IMG/VR virus record: IMGVR_UViG_649989947_000025
Origin: a virus
Lineage: Duplodnaviria; Heunggongvirae; Uroviricota; Caudoviricetes
Reading direction: 5' to 3' (one strand)
Length of the DNA: 34,029 nt
Below the pieces are notes generated by a model that was given only the letters and a program-made list of their open reading frames with translations, did not search any database and was not told the origin of the DNA. Made by a program: the position numbers and the translations under genes. Each line of letters starts with the position of its first letter. The first letter of the stretch is position 1. Of this stretch, positions 270-34,029 are shown one piece after another.

Positions 270-300
270 GCCCTCGCGTTGAGGGCTTTATTGATTTTTT
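270..300. terminator. rho-independent terminator between convergent grxA and ybjM
   Basis: stem gccctc/gagggc with 5-nt loop followed by tttattgatttttt. Confidence 0.5.
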
Positions 301-665
301 CTGTGCTGTGGTTTAAACAAACTACTGATAAATAAGAAACACAATGCCCCCAGCGCACACCAGAACACCGCACTTAATAACCATGCCAGCTCTTGCCAGA
401 ATGAGCGCGTCGGTGAAAAAAACAGCCGCATAATGAGCATCGAACAGGGTGCCGCCAGCATTGCGCCAAACAGAGGTTTCAGGACTTCTCTACGATGTGA
501 AAAGAAGCTGGCAACTGCACCAGGAAGAATGAAAAATAGCAAACCGATTTCAGGATGCCCGGCAGCCCGAAAAGCGCCTTTCATGTGCGTCGCCAGAAAA
601 AGACACACCACAATGAAGAGGACAAAACAGCAGATTGCCCCCGCCCAACGTTGTTTATGTTTCAC
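288..665 (-). CDS. ybjM: inner membrane protein YbjM
   Basis: 125-aa hydrophobic ORF in the position and orientation expected between grxA and ybjL. Confidence 0.75.
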   Translation of the reverse strand: MKHKQRWAGAICCFVLFIVVCLFLATHMKGAFRAAGHPEIGLLFFILPGAVASFFSHRREVLKPLFGAMLAAPCSMLIMRLFFSPTRSFWQELAWLLSAVFWCALGALCFLFISSLFKPQHRKNQ

Positions 666-934
666 TCGTTCCTCCTGACACTGCGTCTATCGAACACATT
701 TTTCGCCAGTGTGGCGTTCAGTAAGATAAAGCCGCTTCGCATTCCATGCTAATATAGGCCAACGCAATTCATATAGCCGTTGATACCTAATGTGATTACA
801 CTAGTAAAATATATTGTTACTTTACTATCGTTTAGGTGCGCTGAATGAATCTGCGCCCTGAATTCTGGTAAAAAACATTATCGTAAATTACCATTTCTTT
901 CAACAGCTTACTAGTAAACAAGAAGTTAGCCTCC

Positions 935-2620
935 GTGAATATAAACGTCGCCGAATTGTTAAATGGGAATTACATTCTGTTATTATTTGTGGTCCTCGCG
1001 CTTGGGCTATGTCTCGGGAAATTACGACTTGGTTCGATCCAACTGGGTAATTCCATTGGCGTTTTAGTCGTATCGCTGTTATTAGGCCAACAACATTTCA
1101 GCATTAACACCGACGCGCTTAATCTTGGCTTTATGCTGTTTATTTTCTGCGTCGGGGTCGAAGCCGGACCGAACTTTTTTTCCATTTTTTTTCGCGATGG
1201 GAAAAATTACCTAATGTTAGCACTGGTGATGGTTGGCAGTGCGCTGGTGATCGCCTTAGGGTTAGGTAAGCTGTTTGGCTGGGATATTGGCCTGACGGCC
1301 GGTATGTTAGCTGGCTCTATGACGTCGACACCGGTTCTGGTCGGTGCTGGCGATACACTGCGTCATTCCGGCATGGAAAGCAGGCAGCTCTCACTGGCAC
1401 TGGATAATCTGAGCCTCGGGTATGCCTTAACCTATTTAATCGGTCTGGTGAGTTTGATTGTTGGTGCGCGTTACTTGCCGAAATTGCAGCATCAGGACTT
1501 ACAGACCAGCGCCCAGCAAATCGCCCGCGAACGTGGCCTGGACACTGATGCCAACCGTAAGGTTTATTTACCGGTGATCCGCGCCTACCGCGTCGGCCCG
1601 GAGCTGGTGGCCTGGACCGACGGCAAAAATCTGCGTGAACTGGGTATTTATCGACAAACTGGCTGCTACATTGAACGTATTCGACGTAACGGGATTCTGG
1701 CAAATCCAGACGGTGATGCTGTGCTACAAATGGGCGATGAAATAGCGTTGGTAGGCTATCCCGACGCCCACGCACGACTCGATCCCAGCTTCCGTAACGG
1801 CAAAGAAGTTTTCGATCGTGACCTTCTCGACATGCGTATCGTCACTGAAGAAGTGGTCGTTAAAAACCATAACGCCGTTGGCAAACGTCTCGCACAACTG
1901 AAGTTGACCGATCACGGTTGCTTCCTTAACCGCGTCATTCGTAGCCAGATTGAGATGCCGATAGATGACAACGTCGTGCTTAACAAAGGTGACGTTTTAC
2001 AAGTCAGCGGCGATGCCCGTCGCGTAAAAACCATCGCCGATCGCATCGGCTTTATCTCGATTCACAGCCAGGTCACTGACTTGCTGGCATTCTGCGCCTT
2101 CTTTGTTATTGGGCTGATGATCGGGATGATCACCTTCCAGTTCAGCACATTCAGTTTCGGCATGGGGAACGCTGCCGGGTTGTTATTCGCCGGAATTATG
2201 CTGGGATTTATGCGCGCTAACCACCCGACCTTCGGTTACATTCCGCAGGGTGCATTAAGCATGGTGAAAGAGTTCGGCTTAATGGTGTTTATGGCAGGCG
2301 TTGGTCTGAGCGCCGGTAGCGGTATTAATAACGGCCTGGGCGCGATTGGCGGTCAGATGTTGATTGCCGGATTGATTGTCAGTCTTGTGCCAGTGGTTAT
2401 CTGTTTCTTGTTCGGTGCTTATGTATTGCGAATGAACCGCGCACTGTTGTTCGGCGCAATGATGGGCGCACGCACCTGCGCGCCGGCAATGGAGATCATC
2501 AGTGATACAGCTCGCAGTAACATCCCGGCGCTGGGCTATGCGGGCACCTATGCAATCGCCAACGTCCTGCTGACGCTGGCAGGGACAATCATCGTCATGG
2601 TATGGCCAGGATTAGGATAA
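935..2620 (+). CDS. ybjL: putative transporter YbjL (AAE-family, two TrkA-C domains)
   Basis: 561-aa ORF with GTG start, membrane N- and C-terminal halves flanking a soluble central region; matches the YbjL N-terminus from memory. Confidence 0.9.
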
Positions 2621-19466: not shown

Positions 19467-20441
19467 TTAAATCAAGTCTAATGTACTCTGTTTCCCTGGC
19501 CATTTTAGCTCTAACAAATACTCCCGGGACTCATTTATGATCATAATCACATCATCATAATCCCGTTTTGTTTTTAGCGCTCTAGCCATGTTGCTCTTAA
19601 CTAAATCAACTGTTCCCTCACAATTAAGATTAAGCGGATTATTAGGTAGGTGAGGTACAACCGCAAACACTGGTCTTTTCGCCTTATTTGCAAACTCAGC
19701 TTGAGTTATCGTTCCGCTATTTAACGCAGCCTCGATTAAAATTGAACCTGCAGATAATCCAACTTGTATCCGATTTCTTTGTACAAATGATTGTTTCTGG
19801 GCCGGCCGACCCATAGGATACTCAGAAATCCATGCACCACCTTTATCCAGAATCTCTTGAGCAAGTCGACTGTTTTGCTTCGGCTTAGCCTCCTCAAGAC
19901 CATGCGCCAAGACAGCAATGGTTTTTCCTTTTGCCTGTAACGTTGCCTTGTGGGCATTCGCATCAGTGCCTATTGCTAACCCACTTACAACAATATACCC
20001 AGCAGACACTATCTGATTAGTGATCCGCCTCGTTATTTCTTCCCCTGCAGGGGAGGTATCACGGGATCCTACAATTGCGACACCCGGCAATTCTTTGAGT
20101 ATACTTTTATCCCCTTTTATGTAGAGAATTGATGGTGGATTAGGAGTAAAAGCTAAACTAAGAGGATAGAATTCAGACCCATATGGTATTAGCTCCACAC
20201 CATTAACATGGTGGTTCTCCAATTCAGCGTTCGCTATTAGAAAATCAGTCTCAGATATTTTATCTTTTAGAAACCCGTGGCTATTAACCATCTCAGTTAA
20301 GTCGCGTATATCACGAATAACATCAAAATCGATAAGCTCAAAGAATTTTAATACACTTTGATCAGATGCTAGCTTCCCGATTTGAATAGCTAATCCAAGT
20401 GTATTTTTTAATTCTTCTGAGTGCACTTTGCTACTCCTCAT
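19467..20441 (-). CDS. DprA/Smf-like (SLOG Rossmann-fold) protein, ShosA-like partner of the upstream PRTase
   Basis: AIVGSRDTS ... VVSGLAIGTDANAHKATL ... TIAVLAHGLE motifs; 11-nt overlap with the upstream gene; AT-rich. Confidence 0.7.
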   Translation of the reverse strand: MRSSKVHSEELKNTLGLAIQIGKLASDQSVLKFFELIDFDVIRDIRDLTEMVNSHGFLKDKISETDFLIANAELENHHVNGVELIPYGSEFYPLSLAFTPNPPSILYIKGDKSILKELPGVAIVGSRDTSPAGEEITRRITNQIVSAGYIVVSGLAIGTDANAHKATLQAKGKTIAVLAHGLEEAKPKQNSRLAQEILDKGGAWISEYPMGRPAQKQSFVQRNRIQVGLSAGSILIEAALNSGTITQAEFANKAKRPVFAVVPHLPNNPLNLNCEGTVDLVKSNMARALKTKRDYDDVIMIINESREYLLELKWPGKQSTLDLI

Positions 20442-21006
20442 AGTTTGCAGTTTCTAGCAGAGCTAATGGCATTATAACTCCAGCTCCTGCAGACTCCAGT
20501 AAATAAAAACACGCAGACAAACTACCGCCTGTTGTTTTAACATCATCTAGTAGTAACACATTTCGCCCCATGAGGTTACCACCCCTAACTCTGATACTAG
20601 ACATGTGACCAGTAATTGAGCGATCTCCTCCTTCACGATGTGCGCTAGGAACAGTGCGTGTTCTTTCCAAACAGCAATCAACAATGCCCCGACGGTGAAC
20701 ATTTACGATTCGCTCGGCGACCTCAATCAAAGCCGGTGAAATTCTGCCTTCAGTGTGAGACGGGACAACTGCTATCGAAAAAGGAGACTCAACAAAACGC
20801 CCACCGCCACCTCTGATTACTAACCGCCCAACCTTATCTATAGCTAATCGAGAAAAACGGTTAATGGCCCTTTGATGATTACGATTATTTTCATCCTTAA
20901 AATCCATCATCTGCCTTGATAGTTCATCGCTATGAGGGTTGCGCTCTCCCAAATGCCAGTAGGGGTGATACAAGCCACACGATGTAATACTTACGGGTAA
21001 AAGCAT
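20431..21006 (-). CDS. phosphoribosyltransferase-domain protein, ShosT-like candidate toxin/effector
   Basis: PRTase PRPP-binding signature VLLLDDVKTTGGSL; first gene of a two-gene operon; AT-rich. Confidence 0.7.
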   Translation of the reverse strand: MLLPVSITSCGLYHPYWHLGERNPHSDELSRQMMDFKDENNRNHQRAINRFSRLAIDKVGRLVIRGGGGRFVESPFSIAVVPSHTEGRISPALIEVAERIVNVHRRGIVDCCLERTRTVPSAHREGGDRSITGHMSSIRVRGGNLMGRNVLLLDDVKTTGGSLSACFYLLESAGAGVIMPLALLETANYEE

Positions 21007-21130
21007 TCTTTATTCTCATGTAGTCCTAACTCAAACAATGTTAAGCGAAATGATATTTCATAGACAAACACAAATTTAAGAATAATCTCAATGATCACAT
21101 TTTTGATTATGAAACAAAGCCAAGAGTTAG

Positions 21131-21165
21131 CGCGCGCTCGTATCCCCGCCACGCCTGCCCGCTTT
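21131..21165 (-). other. candidate cos site (cohesive-end region)
   Basis: minus strand reads GGCGTGGCGGGGATACGAGCGCGCGCT, resembling the P2/186 cohesive-end start recalled from memory; correct position and orientation relative to Q. Confidence 0.45.
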
Positions 21166-21534
21166 ATGCAGTGGTTTTCATGCACATGCATGACATGAGC
21201 AAAAGCCCGCCAGTTCTGGCGGATCTGAGCAAAGACGATCCTCAATCGATCATGCGATTTCATGCAGCATAGTCATGCACTGTCAAGGAAGTGAAAATCC
21301 GTATCTGAATGGCCACTTGAAAAACGGATCATACGGGTTTACAAAGATGAATGTTCGCTGTGAACGGGAAGCGGAAGTTAGCTTTCAGATAACATAATCC
21401 ATATGCACGAGAACCTCTAAAATAGAATGGGACACCTAAGCGGGGTACTTACAACGATTCTTTCCATATTCACAGTTAACACTCTGTTTGGCGTATTTTT
21501 ATTCAAATAGCAAACACCAATAAAAGGAGTTTCC

Positions 21535-21870
21535 ATGAACAATATTCCCCCTATACCACAGTTAGGAATTTATGTCTCAAAAATCGATCCCACCCTACGT
21601 ATCACTGTAACCGATGTTGATATTGTTGATGGTGAGGATGATTCTCCTGATGATGAATTGTTTTATTTAGTCCACTGGATCGAGGGGGAAGATGAAAGTG
21701 ATATGACAGCAATGGGATTTGAGCTAGACCCAGTAGAGTGGCAGGCTTTCGTTGAATCTGAGCAATTAGTGTTTGAGCGTGATCCGTACATGGATTCAAT
21801 CCCCGAAAATTCAAACTTGGCAAAGATTCGGGATTTTCTCATGAAGACTAAACAGAATGATCATTCGTAA
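21535..21870 (+). CDS. hypothetical highly acidic small protein
   Basis: 111 aa, about 26 Asp/Glu vs 7 Lys/Arg; strong SD AAAAGGAG 6 nt before ATG; AT-rich. Confidence 0.6.
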   Translation: MNNIPPIPQLGIYVSKIDPTLRITVTDVDIVDGEDDSPDDELFYLVHWIEGEDESDMTAMGFELDPVEWQAFVESEQLVFERDPYMDSIPENSNLAKIRDFLMKTKQNDHS

Positions 21871-22062: not shown

Positions 22063-22296
22063 TTAATGCAGCCAGCTGTCGTCCTCCCACACCTTCTGCA
22101 TAATTTTCATCACTTGTTTTCTTTCTTCATCCAGTTGCAGTCCGGTTAGTTCCACACCGTTAGAGCTACCTTTGCGAATGCGAATTACCGTTTTGGGATA
22201 CAGGGGGCGCAGATTGCGGTAAAGCTCGGATTCAAGGGCGTCCAGGGTAGACTGGCTAATCTTCTGCTCTTTATCGATCATTATTTCAATGCGCAT
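22063..22296 (-). CDS. DinI-family protein
   Basis: MRIEIMIDK...LYRNLRPLYP...VWEDDSWL resembles DinI; start at internal Met (longest ORF to 22368). Confidence 0.75.
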   Translation of the reverse strand: MRIEIMIDKEQKISQSTLDALESELYRNLRPLYPKTVIRIRKGSSNGVELTGLQLDEERKQVMKIMQKVWEDDSWLH

Positions 22297-22306
22297 AAAA
22301 GTCACC

Positions 22307-22495
22307 TCAGCTGATGACATCCATTGAGCGGTTGTATTCGTGGCTTCTGATTTTTGCCATAAGTTCATCAGTCAATTCAGAAACCCACTGCAGAGCCAGC
22401 CCCTTCTCTTCATCACTACACTCACTAGCCGCTACAAGCTTAAGAAAAAAATCAATGCGCTGGAGCTTCAAAGACTCCAAAAAATAGTCCTGCAT
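22307..22495 (-). CDS. SOS-inducible small protein, Tum-like antirepressor candidate
   Basis: 62 aa from MQDY with AGGAGG SD; first gene downstream of the LexA box; arrangement recalls the 186 tum operon. Confidence 0.5.
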   Translation of the reverse strand: MQDYFLESLKLQRIDFFLKLVAASECSDEEKGLALQWVSELTDELMAKIRSHEYNRSMDVIS

Positions 22496-22649: not shown

Positions 22650-22883
22650 TTAATACAGGTTCCGCCACTTATCATCTTCCTGCAAACGCTGGTTCCGATA
22701 GAAGATACGCAGGCCAGCTCCTGACGGAATACTGCCGCCGCGAAGGAGTAAATCGACCTCTTTCTCGCTGCCATCAAATCCTCTGGATTTCAGTTCATAG
22801 ACGAGCTGCTGTCGTTGATGGTCTGTAATTCGCTGTTTGTAGTCTCTACGCCGTTTCGGTTTCACCAGACGTAACCTTGCAGC
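22650..22883 (-). pseudogene. A: displaced 3' fragment of replication gene A (about 76 codons) separated by the IS insertion
   Basis: reading frame is continuous with the A ORF once the IS and one target-duplication copy are removed. Confidence 0.65.
22879..22883. repeat. 5-bp target site duplication GCAGC (left copy)
   Basis: identical 5-mer directly abuts both IS ends. Confidence 0.75.
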
Positions 22884-27019
<4,136 letters not shown>

Positions 27020-27023
<4 letters not shown>

Positions 27024-28914: not shown

Positions 28915-29430
28915 TCACAGCAAACCGAATGAAGCACCGAGGCCAGTCACGGTATCAACTGCACTCGCCATCGCAGGATTAGCCTGTAAACGGGCCTGCA
29001 ATGAAACAGCAGCCAGCGCCATCAGTCGTGTAACAGAGTTAATGCTGCTGATCGCATCACGACGGCCTGCACTGGTTTTTACATCGCCAGAAACCGCACC
29101 TGCCGCGACACGCCCTATCTCTGCAGTTGCACTCATGACGTAATGCGGCAGTTTCTCTTTTGCCACCTCATTAATCGGTACACATGGCAGGCAGTGAATC
29201 TGTGCCAGAAAGCCATCTACCAGCGTTGAATCTTCAGTCAGATCGGTAAGCAGCCAGATTTCTGGCGCATTGAGCTGATGCGGTTGATCTGGGTTGAGTT
29301 TGTTTCGCAGAGTCTGGACATTCATTCCTGCACGTTCTGCCAGCTTCGCCATATTGTGACGAAGTGCAAAAGCTCTACAGGCTTCATCAAAATGCGGGTG
29401 TTTGGAAACTTGGTAATCAAACATGGTCAA
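28915..29430 (-). CDS. CII-like lysogeny establishment regulator (186 CII-type)
   Basis: 171 aa, second gene of the early operon after the Apl/Cox-like gene; size matches 186 CII. Confidence 0.6.
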
Positions 29431-29456: not shown

Positions 29457-29678
29457 CTAATTAAGGTTTAGATTGCATTCTGAAAGCGCATCAACGGTCA
29501 TGGCTGCTATGTTGATCATCACTTTTTCGCGTTTTTTATCTTTCCGCAGACGGTGACGGATAAGACGTCCATCAGCCAACATGTCATTGATAGTATCGAT
29601 GGATAGCCCTGTCAGCTCGCTATAACGTTCAATAGTCACATGAGGCGTGGTAAGAGTGATTGAAATGTTAGGTTTCAT
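29457..29678 (-). CDS. Apl/Cox-like small DNA-binding protein
   Basis: 73 aa, first gene of the early operon, divergent from cI. Confidence 0.6.
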
Positions 29679-29797
29679 GATGCAACATTCCTCGTTTAAT
29701 GTTGATTAATCAGGACGAATACGGATCGTTTGTATTTTGTGAACACCATAAACATACGATCGCATAATGAAATCATCAAGACAAAAGTTCACTTGGA
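29679..29797. promoter_or_regulatory. lysis-lysogeny switch region between apl-like and cI
   Basis: 119-bp AT-rich intergenic region between divergently oriented repressor and early operon. Confidence 0.5.
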
Positions 29798-30373
29798 GTG
29801 ACCATGAATTTGGAGAAAGGCGGACGAGGCGCTATAGAGCGCATGGTAGAAGCATATGGCTTCAAGACTCGACAGGCGTTGTGCGATCACTTAGGAATCT
29901 CTAAAAGTACTCTCGCCACACGCTATATGCGTGACTCATTCCCTGCTGAATGGGTAATCCAGTGCGCACTTGAAACGGGCGCCTCGCTTAACTGGCTCAC
30001 GACCGGACATGGTTCAAAGCAAACTTCAGGTAATACAAATACTATGGAAGTCGTTAAATATGTATTATCTGATGGAACCTTGCAGGAAGATGGTTTTTAT
30101 ATTTTCGATAAAGAATTTCTACCATCTACGCTCAAAAATCCGTTTGTAATCACCGATAACAATTCCGTTTTTATTTGCGATAAAGAGTTTAACGATATTC
30201 GTGACGGCAAATGGGTAATAAGTATTGATGCCGAAGTAACAATCCGCGATATCACTCGTTTACCTGGTGGAAGAATCTTAGTTGAAGGTGGAAATAGGGC
30301 TTTCGAATGTAAAAAAGAAGAAATCGAAATTATTGGAAAAATTATAAGCATAACAGTTAAGTACTTTGAGTAA
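29798..30373 (+). CDS. cI: CI-type immunity repressor (186 CI-like)
   Basis: 191 aa, N-terminal CI-type HTH (KTRQALCDHLGISKSTLATRYMRD) plus C-terminal oligomerisation domain; position next to the switch. Confidence 0.8.
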   Translation: MTMNLEKGGRGAIERMVEAYGFKTRQALCDHLGISKSTLATRYMRDSFPAEWVIQCALETGASLNWLTTGHGSKQTSGNTNTMEVVKYVLSDGTLQEDGFYIFDKEFLPSTLKNPFVITDNNSVFICDKEFNDIRDGKWVISIDAEVTIRDITRLPGGRILVEGGNRAFECKKEEIEIIGKIISITVKYFE

Positions 30374-30423
30374 TATAGGAATGTTTTTATGCTTGGTAAA
30401 GCATTTGTTGTGGTGTAAAAAAT

Positions 30424-31347
30424 ATGTCAACTCAAAAATTAAAATTTAGCCATATCAAAAACGATCTGAAAGCAATAGTTATGCAGAATCGTGGAGGGCA
30501 AAAAGTTATTGAGCGTATACTCCTAGCCTATGGCTTCAAGTCACGACAGGCATTATGTAATCATCTAGGTATTTCCCAAAGTACTATGGCCAACAGATAT
30601 GCACGTAATACCTTTCCTGCAGATTGGGTTGTTATATGTTCCATAGAAACAGGAGCATCAATTGAATGGTTAGTTCTTGGTTCAGATACTGCTCCTTCAT
30701 CAGAGCAATATTCTGAAAAACATGCCGTTAATGGCCTTTGCAATGAAGTATACATTCCCACTATAAAGTTCGATAATGAAAAACTCATGAATTTTAACCG
30801 AGGGGGTAAGGCAACAATAGAACGAATTGTCGAGGCTTACGGTTACAAAACGCGCCAAGCATTAGCTGATCACCTAGGTATTTCAAAAAGCACATTAGCC
30901 ACACGATACATGCGTGACATTTTTCCTGCAGACTGGGTTTTGCAGTGTGCAATAGAAACGGGCCATTCTATTGAATGGATTTCATTTGGTACAGGAGAAA
31001 TGAAAAACGCAAAAAATAAAGATACTTTAACATTAGTGAAAAAAGTATTAATCAATGGCAAGTTAATAAATGATGGCTCATATTTATTTGACCCATGCTT
31101 TCTACCTTCCAATTTAAAAAATGCATTCGTAGTATCTACCGAAGACTCTGAATTAATATGTGAAATGGGTTTTAAAGATGTACATGATGGTAAGTGGCTA
31201 GTAAATATTGATGGAGAGAATTCATTTAGAATGATAACTCGACTACCTAAAGGACGAGTTTATATTTCATCCCAAAATCACTCTTTTGAATGTTCGCTTA
31301 CAGACATTGAGTTTATTGCAAAAGTTATTATAAGTTGTTTACATTAA
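30424..31347 (+). CDS. CI-repressor paralog with two tandem CI-type HTH domains
   Basis: residues ~24-88 and ~127-190 each repeat the CI HTH; C-terminal ~110 aa align with the C-terminal domain of the upstream CI. Confidence 0.75.
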   Translation: MSTQKLKFSHIKNDLKAIVMQNRGGQKVIERILLAYGFKSRQALCNHLGISQSTMANRYARNTFPADWVVICSIETGASIEWLVLGSDTAPSSEQYSEKHAVNGLCNEVYIPTIKFDNEKLMNFNRGGKATIERIVEAYGYKTRQALADHLGISKSTLATRYMRDIFPADWVLQCAIETGHSIEWISFGTGEMKNAKNKDTLTLVKKVLINGKLINDGSYLFDPCFLPSNLKNAFVVSTEDSELICEMGFKDVHDGKWLVNIDGENSFRMITRLPKGRVYISSQNHSFECSLTDIEFIAKVIISCLH

Positions 31348-31372
31348 GTAAATTTTTCATGGAGACTTCATA

Positions 31373-32890
31373 GTGAAATGTGGTGATTGTAATTGGAACT
31401 GGGATGAAGAAACTACCTTTATATTAGACGACGAAGAGGAAATTCTTTCCAAAGACAAACTTAATCGGAGACACTATGCAGAATATCTATATTTTTATCT
31501 TAAGGAAAAGGGGCAAAAGAACAACACGGTAATCAACCTTAATGCAGAATGGGGAGCTGGTAAAAGTTTTTTCATAAAGAGATTTTATAACTCAATAAAA
31601 GATGCACACCCATGCGTTTACATTGATGCCTGGAAGCAAGACTTTTCTGATGATGCATTTTTAACCCTTTTTTCTTCTTTGTCACAACAATTGCAAACAT
31701 ATGCAGGAAAACTTGATGCTCGATTGATACAAAGCGGCCATGCTATCGGACGCTTTACAAAAGGTGTTCTACCTGAAATCATATCTGGCCTAATCAAGAC
31801 TTATGCAGGAGTAGATAACGTAGGTGATATAGCCAAAGAAGCCTCATTAATAATGCTGAAGGAACACCAGGAAAAACTGAAGAGCATTAAGGTATTAAAA
31901 AAAGAACTAACGTTATGGTCTAGGTTGGCATATGAAAATAGTTTTTCATGTCCTATATTTATCTTTATAGATGAATTAGACAGATGCAGGCCAGATTATG
32001 CAATTTCTCTTTTAGAGATTGTTAAACATATATTCGATATTAAAAATTTTGTCTTTATTATTGCTACTGACACAGATCAATTACAACATTCAATCAAGAA
32101 TGTTTACGGTAATGATTTTTCCGCAAATGACTATTTAGGCCGTTTTTTTCATAGAAGATTTACTTTAAAACAACCTGAACTTAAAGATTTAATTAATGGT
32201 GTTGTTGGTGATTATATTGGTACCGATTTTGAAAATATCACATCAAAAACACACCCACTAACAGCAACATTAGAAGACTTTTCAATAAATATTTCCAACG
32301 TATTTGAAGCATTTGGGTTAAATCTAAGAGACTCAATCCGAAATACTGAAAGGTTAATAGACATTCTTAAATCTGATTTAGTCAAAAAGAAAGTAGATTA
32401 TATTTTTATAATTTCGCTAATGATTATATATGATAAGGAACGTCAAATTATAGATGGACTAATTGGTCGAAGAAATGCAGCACAACGTTTCACTGATTCG
32501 ATAAAGCAAAGCTCCAATTTAAAAGGTGTTTCTCAAGCCATCCTTGAATTAAATCTTGATACAAATCAGCAAAGAATAGGTGTCAATTATATCTATAGAA
32601 CGGCGAGCAGTAGATTATTCATCTCACAGATCGAGCCCAAAATAAATTTAACATTAATAAATTACTTAGATGTTGCATTGTATTTTATTAATAATATAAA
32701 CATGCTTAAATCAAGTATAAAAAACAATGGGCAAAATTCACTAATGATTATATCTCAACAAGGCCCTATTGATGGTGATACAGCTATAAAGTATTTGCAA
32801 GGAGCCCTTATAGAGAATGGTCTGAATACATCTTTTTATGCCTTACATAATTACATTGAATTAATTGAACTGGCCACATCATTTGATTAA
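31373..32890 (+). CDS. KAP-family P-loop NTPase
   Basis: Walker A NAEWGAGKSFF, KAP-type Walker B FIFIDELDRC, 505 aa, GTG start with GGAG SD; very AT-rich. Confidence 0.75.
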   Translation: MKCGDCNWNWDEETTFILDDEEEILSKDKLNRRHYAEYLYFYLKEKGQKNNTVINLNAEWGAGKSFFIKRFYNSIKDAHPCVYIDAWKQDFSDDAFLTLFSSLSQQLQTYAGKLDARLIQSGHAIGRFTKGVLPEIISGLIKTYAGVDNVGDIAKEASLIMLKEHQEKLKSIKVLKKELTLWSRLAYENSFSCPIFIFIDELDRCRPDYAISLLEIVKHIFDIKNFVFIIATDTDQLQHSIKNVYGNDFSANDYLGRFFHRRFTLKQPELKDLINGVVGDYIGTDFENITSKTHPLTATLEDFSINISNVFEAFGLNLRDSIRNTERLIDILKSDLVKKKVDYIFIISLMIIYDKERQIIDGLIGRRNAAQRFTDSIKQSSNLKGVSQAILELNLDTNQQRIGVNYIYRTASSRLFISQIEPKINLTLINYLDVALYFINNINMLKSSIKNNGQNSLMIISQQGPIDGDTAIKYLQGALIENGLNTSFYALHNYIELIELATSFD

Positions 32891-32952
32891 AAGCATTGTT
32901 TGAATAAACTAAACCATACATTGACCACTGGTCAAACATACAGTTAAATTTA

Positions 32953-32976
32953 GCCCTCTGATATGAGGGCTTTATT
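32953..32976 (+). terminator. hairpin plus T-tract ending at the int start codon
   Basis: gccctc-tgatat-gagggc then tttatt, then ATG at 32977. Confidence 0.5.
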
Positions 32977-34029
32977 ATGGCAGTACGAAAACTCACCACA
33001 GGAAAATGGCTTTGCGAATGTTACCCCGCCGGACGTAGTGGGCGTCGTGTGCGTAAACAATTCGCCACCAAAGGCGAAGCACTGGCTTTTGAGCGTCACA
33101 CGATGGAAGAAACCGAAGCAAAGCCCTGGCTGGGTGAATCAGTGGATCGTCGAACACTGAAAGACGTGGTTGAGCTATGGTTCAAACTACATGGTAAATC
33201 TCTGACTGCTGGGCAGCATGTCTATGACAAATTGCTGCTGATGGTTGACGCTCTGGGCAATCCCCTTGCAACTGATCTAACCTCTAAAATGTTTGCCCAC
33301 TATCGAGATAAACGCCTGACAGGTGAGATCTACTTCAGTGAGAAATGGAAGAAAGGAGCAAGCCCGGTCACCATTAACCTGGAGCAAAGCTATCTAAGTA
33401 GTGTTTTTAGCGAACTATCCCGCCTGGGCGAATGGTCGTATCCGAACCCACTGGAGAACATGCGAAAATTCACCATCGCAGAAAAAGAGATGGCATGGCT
33501 TACCCATGAGCAGATTGTTGAATTACTAGCTGATTGCAAACGTCAGGACCCAATTCTGGCACTGGTAGTTAAGATATGCTTAAGCACAGGCGCACGCTGG
33601 CGAGAAGACGTAAATCTTACCCGCTCACAGGTGACCAAATACCGAATTACCTTTGTAAGAGCGAAGGGGAAGAAAAACAGAAGCATCCCTATCAGTAAAG
33701 AGCTTTACGAAGAGATCATGGCGCTTGATGGGTTCAATTTCTTCACAGACTGCTATTTTCAATTTTTATCCGTGATGGAAAAAACGTCTATCGTGCTCCC
33801 TCGCGGTCAACTCACACACGTTCTGCGCCATACGTTTGCGGCGCACTTCATGATGTCGGGTGGAAACATTCTGGCTTTACAAAAAATTCTCGGACACCAC
33901 GATATAAAAATGACTATGCGTTACGCACATCTGGCACCGGATCATCTGGAAACGGCGCTCCGTTTCAATCCTCTGGCAACGCTGCCAAGTGGCGACAAAG
34001 TGGCGGCAGCGGTTGGCATTACCCCGTAA
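32977..34029 (+). CDS. int: tyrosine integrase (P2/186 Int family)
   Basis: 350 aa with RHTFA and HHDIKMTMRYAHL motifs (catalytic R..H..R..Y); stop codon is the last 3 nt of the window. Confidence 0.9.
   Translation: MAVRKLTTGKWLCECYPAGRSGRRVRKQFATKGEALAFERHTMEETEAKPWLGESVDRRTLKDVVELWFKLHGKSLTAGQHVYDKLLLMVDALGNPLATDLTSKMFAHYRDKRLTGEIYFSEKWKKGASPVTINLEQSYLSSVFSELSRLGEWSYPNPLENMRKFTIAEKEMAWLTHEQIVELLADCKRQDPILALVVKICLSTGARWREDVNLTRSQVTKYRITFVRAKGKKNRSIPISKELYEEIMALDGFNFFTDCYFQFLSVMEKTSIVLPRGQLTHVLRHTFAAHFMMSGGNILALQKILGHHDIKMTMRYAHLAPDHLETALRFNPLATLPSGDKVAAAVGITP

Follow-up and report, generated by a model that had tools for sequence, protein, structure and literature searches.

Two CI repressors in one lysogenic operon: a double helix-turn-helix repressor, apparently acquired with a KAP NTPase gene, in a 186-like prophage

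Why should a prophage with a repressor gene at its switch carry a second one directly behind it? The question is raised by IMG/VR virus record IMGVR_UViG_649989947_000025 (Caudoviricetes), a stretch of 34,029 nucleotides that is called the window here. The window is a 186-like (Peduoviridae) prophage, and its lysis-lysogeny switch is run by the repressor CI-1. The gene for CI-1 sits at the switch as the lysogenic operon's first gene, and it is followed by a second cI gene (CI-2), a gene for a KAP-family NTPase (KAP), and the integrase gene (int). An initial annotation of the same DNA had reported a tandem CI pair separated by 50 bp, with a second protein of 307 amino acids (aa), and the open reading frames (ORFs) bear this out. 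Its length of 191 aa for CI-1 holds for a start at GTG 29798 but becomes 189 aa from the RefSeq start. Our answer to the question has two parts. The evolutionary anatomy of CI-2, namely a cassette joined to a core repressor, arrival as a block in a cargo hotspot, and an orphan state with no switch of its own, is well supported. As to function, we give roughly even odds (about 0.5) to the reading that CI-2, co-transcribed with the rest of the lysogenic operon, confers immunity in trans against 186-like phages whose own repressor has two helix-turn-helix (HTH) domains. The features needed for the argument are as follows.

29804 to 30373, + strand: CI-1, the resident primary repressor, with a single HTH and a C-terminal domain (CTD); 189 aa from ATG 29804
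30424 to 31347, + strand: CI-2, 307 aa, separated from CI-1 by the 50-bp gap at 30374 to 30423
30424 to 30786, + strand: N-terminal cassette of CI-2 (aa 1–121), with HTH1 at aa 13–85 (30460 to 30678) and a disordered linker at aa 93–119 (30700 to 30780)
30787 to 31347, + strand: core of CI-2, resembling a complete single-HTH CI from the internal Met122, with HTH2 at aa 127–188 (30802 to 30987) and the CTD at aa 202–306 (31027 to 31341)
31373 to 32890, + strand: KAP-family P-loop NTPase, 505 aa (PF07693, E 9e-46), a candidate anti-phage gene
30415 to 32910, + strand: putatively acquired low-GC cargo block (CI-2 and KAP), about 2.5 kb, delimited by composition and blastn end points

Two PF07022 stretches (E 3.8e-56) and one C-terminal PF16452 domain (E 1.5e-25) were found in CI-2 with Pfam, which confirms the duplicated DNA-binding domain noticed in the initial annotation; CI-1 has PF07022 (E 3e-33) and PF16452 (E 7e-27). 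CI-1 aligns by BLASTP to residues 122–302 of CI-2 with 56% identity (E 5e-78), and its N-terminal domain (NTD) also aligns to HTH1 (58%, E 3e-30). Pairwise alignment of the three HTH units and the two CTDs, a check proposed with the initial annotation, gave identities of 62–71% among the HTHs (HTH2 and the CI-1 NTD, 71%; HTH1 and the CI-1 NTD, 62%; HTH1 and HTH2, 65%) and 48% between the CTDs. CI-1 and HTH2 have the same putative recognition helix, SKSTLATRYMRD. The claims that the second HTH is like that of CI-1 and that the CTDs are homologous thus hold. A model of CI-2 predicted with AlphaFold2 (mean predicted local distance difference test score, pLDDT, 81.6; predicted template modeling score 0.45) consists of two five-helix domains, a disordered linker (pLDDT below 50 in residues 93–119), and a confident beta CTD (block-mean pLDDT about 89–97), and the inter-domain geometry is not fixed. 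Residues 131–302 match the CI of phage 186 (PDB 2FJR, E 1e-22); PDB 2FKD was also matched.

The initial annotation treated the duplicated HTH as peculiar to CI-2. It is instead a family-wide architecture: double-HTH CI proteins form a widespread enterobacterial subfamily, neither an artefact nor unique to the window, and the unusual feature of this locus is the tandem arrangement. Dozens of proteins of 290–330 aa with the double-HTH architecture were recovered when 5.8 billion proteins were searched; they come from E. coli, Salmonella, Klebsiella, Enterobacter, Citrobacter, Kosakonia, and Edwardsiella and fall into at least 37 clusters at 90% identity. HTH1 carries a stretch, SQSTMANRYAR(N/D), that is near-invariant in this family and is also present in CI-2. 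Among the 37 clusters, mean pairwise identity is high in the two HTHs (HTH1, 73%; HTH2, 76%) and low in the linker (24%) and the CTD (36%); therefore, both HTHs are under constraint. Wherever else a double-HTH protein was examined in its locus, it is the sole primary cI at the switch. These loci include Klebsiella phage 4LV2017, Kp ST11-VIM1phi8.4, Salmonella phage PSP3, a GTDB locus (L007; L numbers are our locus handles), 29 IMG/VR loci, and E. coli prophages at the same rcdA site (L087, L088). The cI of PSP3 (286 aa, two PF07022 and one PF16452) is annotated as "immunity repressor", and a comparison of P2-like regulatory regions describes it only as having a longer C-terminal domain (PMC3448106). 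Full-text searches, among which the PF07022 term alone addressed the point, found no literature description of the duplication in CI, and those on the repressors of the P2-like prophage of enteropathogenic E. coli (EPEC) E2348/69 gave nothing relevant; the subfamily appears to be so far undescribed as such. A query with the cassette matched in 475 of 5426 complete E. coli genomes, and about half of a spread sample of 30 listed match rows begin at the first codons of the cassette. By a rough extrapolation from those 30 rows, which is not a count, prophages of the double class are perhaps present in 4–5% of complete E. coli genomes. Two loci, L008 (5986 to 6946) and L125 (4986 to 5937), have a double-HTH cI split into an N-terminal ORF with both HTHs and a separate CTD ORF, and these look like frameshifted or decaying primary repressors.

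How the second HTH was added can be read from the alignment of the two types of CI. In alignment, Met122 of CI-2 falls on the initiator Met of single-HTH CIs (CI-1 and that of the single-CI prophage L002), as do the equivalent Mets of L104 and L087. From position 30788, the core of CI-2 is colinear at the nucleotide level with the complete single-HTH cI of L126 (73% identity). The repressor of L104 is the HTH1-linker cassette fused to a core like that of CI-1 and L002, with a CTD 87% identical to that of CI-1, and its nucleotide homology to CI-1 begins exactly at the CI-1 start codon. These three observations indicate that a double-HTH repressor consists of a cassette of about 121 aa (HTH1 and linker) joined in frame to the start Met of a full core CI, which supplies HTH2 and the oligomerization CTD. 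The CI of phage 186 has the same PF07022 HTH and PF16452 CTD as CI-2, and its surroundings resemble the window in the divergent apl-cII neighborhood and the downstream int. However, 186 CI has one HTH and is encoded by the first gene at the switch, which overlaps int without cargo, whereas CI-2 (29% identical to 186 CI) has the extra HTH cassette and is encoded by the second cI of its operon, with no switch of its own. PSP3 cI and 4LV2017 CI share the two PF07022 domains and the PF16452 domain with CI-2, and 4LV2017 CI is 62% identical to CI-2 overall (HTH1, about 90%; HTH2, about 84%); they differ from it in that each is the only cI of its own phage and is placed at the switch.

If such proteins are primary repressors elsewhere, how did one come to lie behind CI-1? 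The block that holds CI-2 and KAP has a GC content of about 0.28–0.40, compared with about 0.42–0.57 in the backbone, and both of its ends can be placed. On the left, backbone homology to single-CI prophages (L002, 91%) ends at 30414 and covers the first nine codons of the 63-aa cargo ORF of L002, and homology to double-HTH cI genes starts at 30416, 8 nt before the ATG of CI-2, so that the junction is at about 30415/30416. The truncated ORF is listed below.

30389 to 30418, + strand: nine-codon remnant of the L002-type 63-aa cargo ORF, from ATG 30389 to TAA 30418, with AGGA 8 nt upstream; its stop lies 5 nt before the ATG of CI-2

On the right, backbone homology resumes at about 32907–32916, roughly 20 nt past the KAP stop. 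Within the block, positions 30416 to 30991 are about 79% identical at the nucleotide level to double-HTH cI genes of the L087/4LV2017 type (also L001 and L105), and the stretch from 30788 to 33980 is colinear with the cI-KAP-int region of L126 (73%). The closest KAP and the closest CI CTD come from the same loci, namely L126 (69% for KAP and 68% for the CTD), L130 (69% and 66%), and L132 (62% and 59%). Judged by these alignments, the CI-2 gene is a horizontally acquired mosaic, and the block appears to have recombined into the cI-int interval from another 186-like phage, carrying the repressor and the KAP gene that followed it. The label "paralog" used in the initial annotation is thus misleading. 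A local tandem duplication was rejected as the source of CI-2 because its core is nearer to L126-type CIs (CTD 68%) than to CI-1 (48%), and also because of the differing GC content of the block.

The simplest history would be a single recombination with a donor 186-like phage that had a double-HTH primary cI and then KAP, with the resident cI kept; the left end of the exchange would be illegitimate, and the right end would lie in the conserved region before int. Since the left crossover is 8 nt upstream of the CI-2 ATG, CI-2 came without donor promoter, operators, or apl partner. A captured heterologous immunity repressor, one of several options in the initial annotation, is the best-supported of them and is the one we favor, because the relatives of CI-2 are the sole primary repressors of other 186-like phages and CI-2 arrived without its switch. 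However, the same history gives the main rival to immunity in trans: CI-2 may be a neutral hitch-hiker, dragged in with a selected cargo, KAP, by a crossover that happened to fall just upstream of the donor cI; the protein would then be made or not, and would have no selected function in this prophage. One recombination event fully accounts for the block structure and its junctions, and a joint arrival is also what the shared closest relatives of the CI-2 CTD and KAP would suggest. The window has no cognate switch for CI-2.

What the copies of this locus say about selection is limited by their youth. Of 5426 complete E. coli genomes, 17 have the CI-1/CI-2/KAP/int layout, with identities of 99.3–99.9%; EPEC E2348/69 is among them, and contig L103 of IMG/VR has the layout as well. 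A protein identical to CI-2 is indexed in 1074 assembly blocks, and the order CI-1/CI-2/KAP/int was seen in all ten contexts listed. Mis-assembly, which the initial annotation had named as a way in which the domain duplication might arise, was therefore rejected. A scan of about 165 related loci for CI domains found two cI genes in the window lineage only, and the restriction of the tandem to one young lineage favors the hitch-hiker. Fifteen copies of CI-2 (the window and 14 loci) have six variable sites in 924 nt, three synonymous and three non-synonymous, and these substitutions are too few to show constraint. However, no stop or frameshift occurs in any of the 15 copies, the intact protein is indexed as widely as noted above, and all three non-synonymous changes fall in the CTD and spare both HTH domains. 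The frameshifted double-HTH cI genes of L008 and L125 indicate that decay of such genes does occur and can be seen. Weighing these points, we regard neutral hitch-hiking as possible but somewhat improbable. One of the 17 E. coli records (L102, NZ_JBRERE010000002.1, "plasmid pE100181_149") has the full CI-1/CI-2/KAP/int arrangement on what is labeled a 150-kb circular plasmid, and this may be a mislabeled contig or a real relocation.

Could CI-2 instead serve the gene behind it? KAP has a Walker A motif (GAGKS) and a Walker B motif (IFIDELD), read in the translation. It matches PDC-S20 of PADLOC (E 5e-78), in which PDC entries are candidates only, and more weakly PifA and QatA; no experimental report of anti-phage activity was found for PDC-S20. 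Across the 15 copies, KAP is about three times more polymorphic than both repressor genes, with 30 variable sites in 1518 nt, of which 14 are non-synonymous and mostly in the C-terminal third. The initial annotation had suggested CI-2 as the regulator of the NTPase, and a wider form of this idea makes it a dedicated regulator or protein partner of KAP, for example the sensor or guardee of a two-gene defense system. The two genes are indeed adjacent, with a gap of 25 bp, and are inherited together, and the closest KAPs adjoin the closest CI CTDs. However, in E. coli W, Hafnia, Citrobacter, Brenneria, Rahnella, and about ten IMG/VR loci, the only cI has KAP immediately behind it, which points to a pairing with the lysogenic operon and not with an extra repressor. 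Co-evolution of KAP and CI was tested and not supported: across the family, KAP and the CI CTD do not co-vary (Mantel r 0.26, p 0.18), and L027 and L133 have KAPs that are 59% identical but CTDs that are 33% identical. Moreover, PDC-S20 was matched by KAP alone, neither CI-1 nor CI-2 matched any PADLOC model, and 25 bp is too short for a promoter and an operator. A dedicated partnership with KAP is thus very improbable.

The cI-int interval of related prophages ranges from no gap to about 3 kb, and its conserved cI and int flanks enclose unrelated, variable cargo: the 63-aa ORF in L002, two hypothetical genes in L087, GmrSD and HEPN in L088, and KAP NTPases. In phage lambda, the defense genes rexA and rexB are co-transcribed with the immunity repressor in the lysogen. 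The same logic likely applies, by analogy, to cI-KAP in the window and in E. coli W, although the proteins are unrelated and the cargo of the window additionally has a second repressor. Rousset et al. (2022, PMC9122126) reported a defense hotspot between cI and int in K139-like Vibrio phages related to P2. The 186-like prophages compared here likewise have variable cargo between conserved cI and int; the difference is that the reported phages are from Vibrionaceae and that a repressor as cargo was not reported there. A further parallel is found in P2-like phages, whose immunity modules are exchanged by recombination, as in the P2 Hy dis type. In that case the immunity region was replaced, whereas in the window the incoming repressor was apparently added behind the resident one, giving two. 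P2 Hy dis has been treated as a heteroimmune relative (PMC1904268).

The switches of related prophages are informative on DNA recognition by these repressors; that of the window is as follows.

29679 to 29803: resident lysis-lysogeny switch, about 91% identical to that of the single-CI prophage L002, with one site like the 186 A type, TTCAC-N5-GTGAC (29788 to 29802), and one predicted sigma70-like promoter on the + strand (29740 to 29768)

Against the CI of L002, CI-1 is 99% identical in the NTD and 86% in the CTD. A set of 52 loci (26 distinct sequences) shares one switch backbone, and the compared switch centers sit about 80–87 nt upstream of cI. All single-HTH CIs of 197/198 aa on this backbone, which begin with MSTSKYP(S/N)EIKI or, once, MSALKYPNEIKI, pair with a central near-palindrome, CCCAA(A/T)TGGG. 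In L162 it reads AGTACCCAATTGGGTACA, to be compared with TCTCTCAATTGGGAGA of 186 pR, and the near-palindrome (L162, L013, L014, L030, L135, and others) resembles the central 186 pR operator. On the same backbone, the double-HTH CIs of 308–326 aa (L087, L001, L104, and others) without exception pair with a non-palindromic center that is about 5–8 nt shorter, and GTGAC-N5-7-TCACAAAACGGAGAATAGGATC was present in 27 of 27 such loci (16 distinct sequences). This perfect co-variation of CI architecture and operator center argues that HTH1 takes part in recognition and that the single and double variants are heteroimmune. The 198-aa CIs share the MST start and the segment before HTH2 with the double-HTH proteins, as if the two differed only by the presence or absence of HTH1. 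Leaderless cI mRNAs in the double class were considered and dropped, since the annotation of 186 puts pL next to apl.

CI-2 itself is close to the primary repressors of the double class in both HTHs (HTH1, 85–90%; HTH2, 81–84%). The double-class center is absent from the window, and the conserved double-class switch elements ATCTCCTATTGG, CGGAGAATAGGATC, and GTGA-N6-9-TTCAC are absent from it or occur at chance level, as expected for a repressor that left its switch behind. A broader reading, which we offer tentatively and hold to be possible but less than likely, goes further: the HTH1-linker cassette may be a portable specificity module by which a symmetric, dimer-reading repressor of the 186 type becomes able to read asymmetric operators in a bipartite manner. 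Operator types A and B, both of which are read by a single HTH in 186 CI, could then be divided between the two domains. On this reading, the window prophage would have kept such a repressor, freed from any switch, purely as an anti-phage immunity gene in a defense hotspot.

The similarity of the two repressors raises another possibility, in which CI-2 would modulate the resident switch. It might bind CI-1 operators through HTH2, co-assemble with CI-1 through the CTD, or soak up an antirepressor, and thereby alter lysogen stability or the induction threshold. A dominant-negative or anti-repressor partner of CI-1 was among the options of the initial annotation, and the evidence speaks neither for nor against it. 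The shared stretch SKSTLATRYMRD, the 71% identity of HTH2 to the CI-1 NTD, and the homology of the CTDs (48%) are all consistent with this. Since 186 CI works as a 14-mer wheel (PMC3675496), mixed assemblies are conceivable, and the prophage has a DinI-like ORF.

22063 to 22368, − strand: DinI-like ORF (PF06183), matching only positions 64–148 of the 151-position PHROG 189 profile

However, the CTD is the most divergent domain of the double-HTH family (36% mean identity), as would be expected if heterologous repressors avoid co-assembly. The same or a nearly identical helix is found in many CIs with differing switches, so that shared operators cannot be predicted from the helix alone. Since the DinI-like ORF matches no more than the C-terminal half of the profile, it resembles that half of a Tum/DinI-type protein and is at most a candidate for a Tum-type antirepressor. 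Modulation of the switch is unlikely in our view.

Immunity in trans remains the reading that we prefer, and it would proceed as follows. Neither a terminator-like site nor a + strand promoter-like site was found in the 50-bp gap between CI-1 and CI-2. We infer from this that transcription from the lysogenic promoter or promoters covers CI-2 and KAP along with CI-1 and int, and co-transcription of CI-2 with CI-1 is plausible on the gene arrangement. Translation of CI-2 may plausibly be helped by termination-reinitiation after the nine-codon remnant ORF. In the lysogen, the protein would have no cognate switch to act on in cis; it would bind the non-palindromic operators of incoming 186-like phages of the double class, which seem common in E. 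coli and share the attachment site of this prophage, and repress their early promoter. The lysogen would thereby gain a second immunity specificity. KAP would act separately as a defense gene, expressed from the repressor transcript in the manner of rexAB and lambda cI.

Several points weigh against this proposal. CI-2 lacks a canonical Shine-Dalgarno sequence, and its lineage is too young, with six polymorphic sites, for a meaningful ratio of non-synonymous to synonymous substitution rates. The identity of the putative HTH2 recognition helix to that of CI-1 makes cross-talk with the resident switch possible. No donor combining the exact cassette, an L126-like core, and KAP was found in the 5.8-billion-protein search, the GTDB genomes, IMG/VR, or the exact-protein contexts, and the nearest full-length relative is about 62% identical. 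The operators, which 186-type CIs have at pR/pL and at flanking sites, were sought in four ways. Scans of both switch types for short inverted repeats, which the initial annotation had recommended, gave no defensible operator set for CI-1 or CI-2, nor did k-mer enrichment around nine switches or a search for k-mers common to the switch and the positions equivalent to pB, FL, and FR. When the annotated 186 sites (ATTCAC-N5-GTGAAT) were sought in the window, one site was found, not above chance. Finally, gene A is broken in the window by an IS21-family element, and the prophage may be decaying.

If CI-2 does work in trans, the host would get two immunity specificities from one lysogenic operon together with the KAP defense gene. 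A prophage would thereby have simple means of keeping out competitors for its attachment site, and repressor genes would themselves prove able to travel as cargo in defense hotspots. The most interesting by-product of the analysis is the double-HTH subfamily and its operator co-variation. It constitutes a natural experiment for the wheel model of 186 CI, in which the same core and switch backbone occur with and without a second HTH and with a matching change in operator symmetry.

The remaining features of the prophage agree with its assignment. Its − strand genes include cII, apl, fil, DUF5347, DUF2732, TraR/DksA, dam, and gpA, and the + strand genes run from cI to int, which adjoins host rcdA in the reference genomes.

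28915 to 29430, − strand: cII (PF06892, E 1e-43; "phage regulatory CII family protein" in RefSeq), early lytic/establishment operon
29457 to 29678, − strand: apl/cox-like excisionase-repressor, 73 aa (PHROG 575, "Cox-like excisionase and repressor", E 1.4e-30)
32977 to 34029, + strand: integrase (Pfam), the last gene of the lysogenic operon
22884 to 24837: IS21-family element of 1954 bp, with istB (22950 to 23732, − strand; PF01695 IstB) and istA (23729 to 24751, − strand; PF00665 rve)

The IS21-family element splits the replication gene A into a 752-aa N-terminal ORF (24765 to 27023) and a C-terminal fragment (22650 to 22934). In E2348/69, gene A is an uninterrupted 804-aa gene, and the rest of the stretch is 99.9–100% identical to the window; the prophage copy in the window is probably defective in replication. 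Host DNA makes up the left end of the window (288 to 2620), with a ybjM-like gene (PF11045) and a ybjL-like Asp-Al_Ex permease gene, and therefore the window spans the left prophage-host junction. Its right end is exactly the int stop codon. The interval between gpA and the portal gene (19467 to 21870) carries several ORFs. These include a DprA-like protein of 324 aa (PF02481, with a weak SLOG match) and ORFs of 191 aa, 90 aa, and, divergently oriented, 111 aa, whose matches are PHROGs of unknown function only. This interval is the known P2 defense hotspot #1 of Vassallo et al. (PMC9519451), and its ORFs may be further defense cargo.

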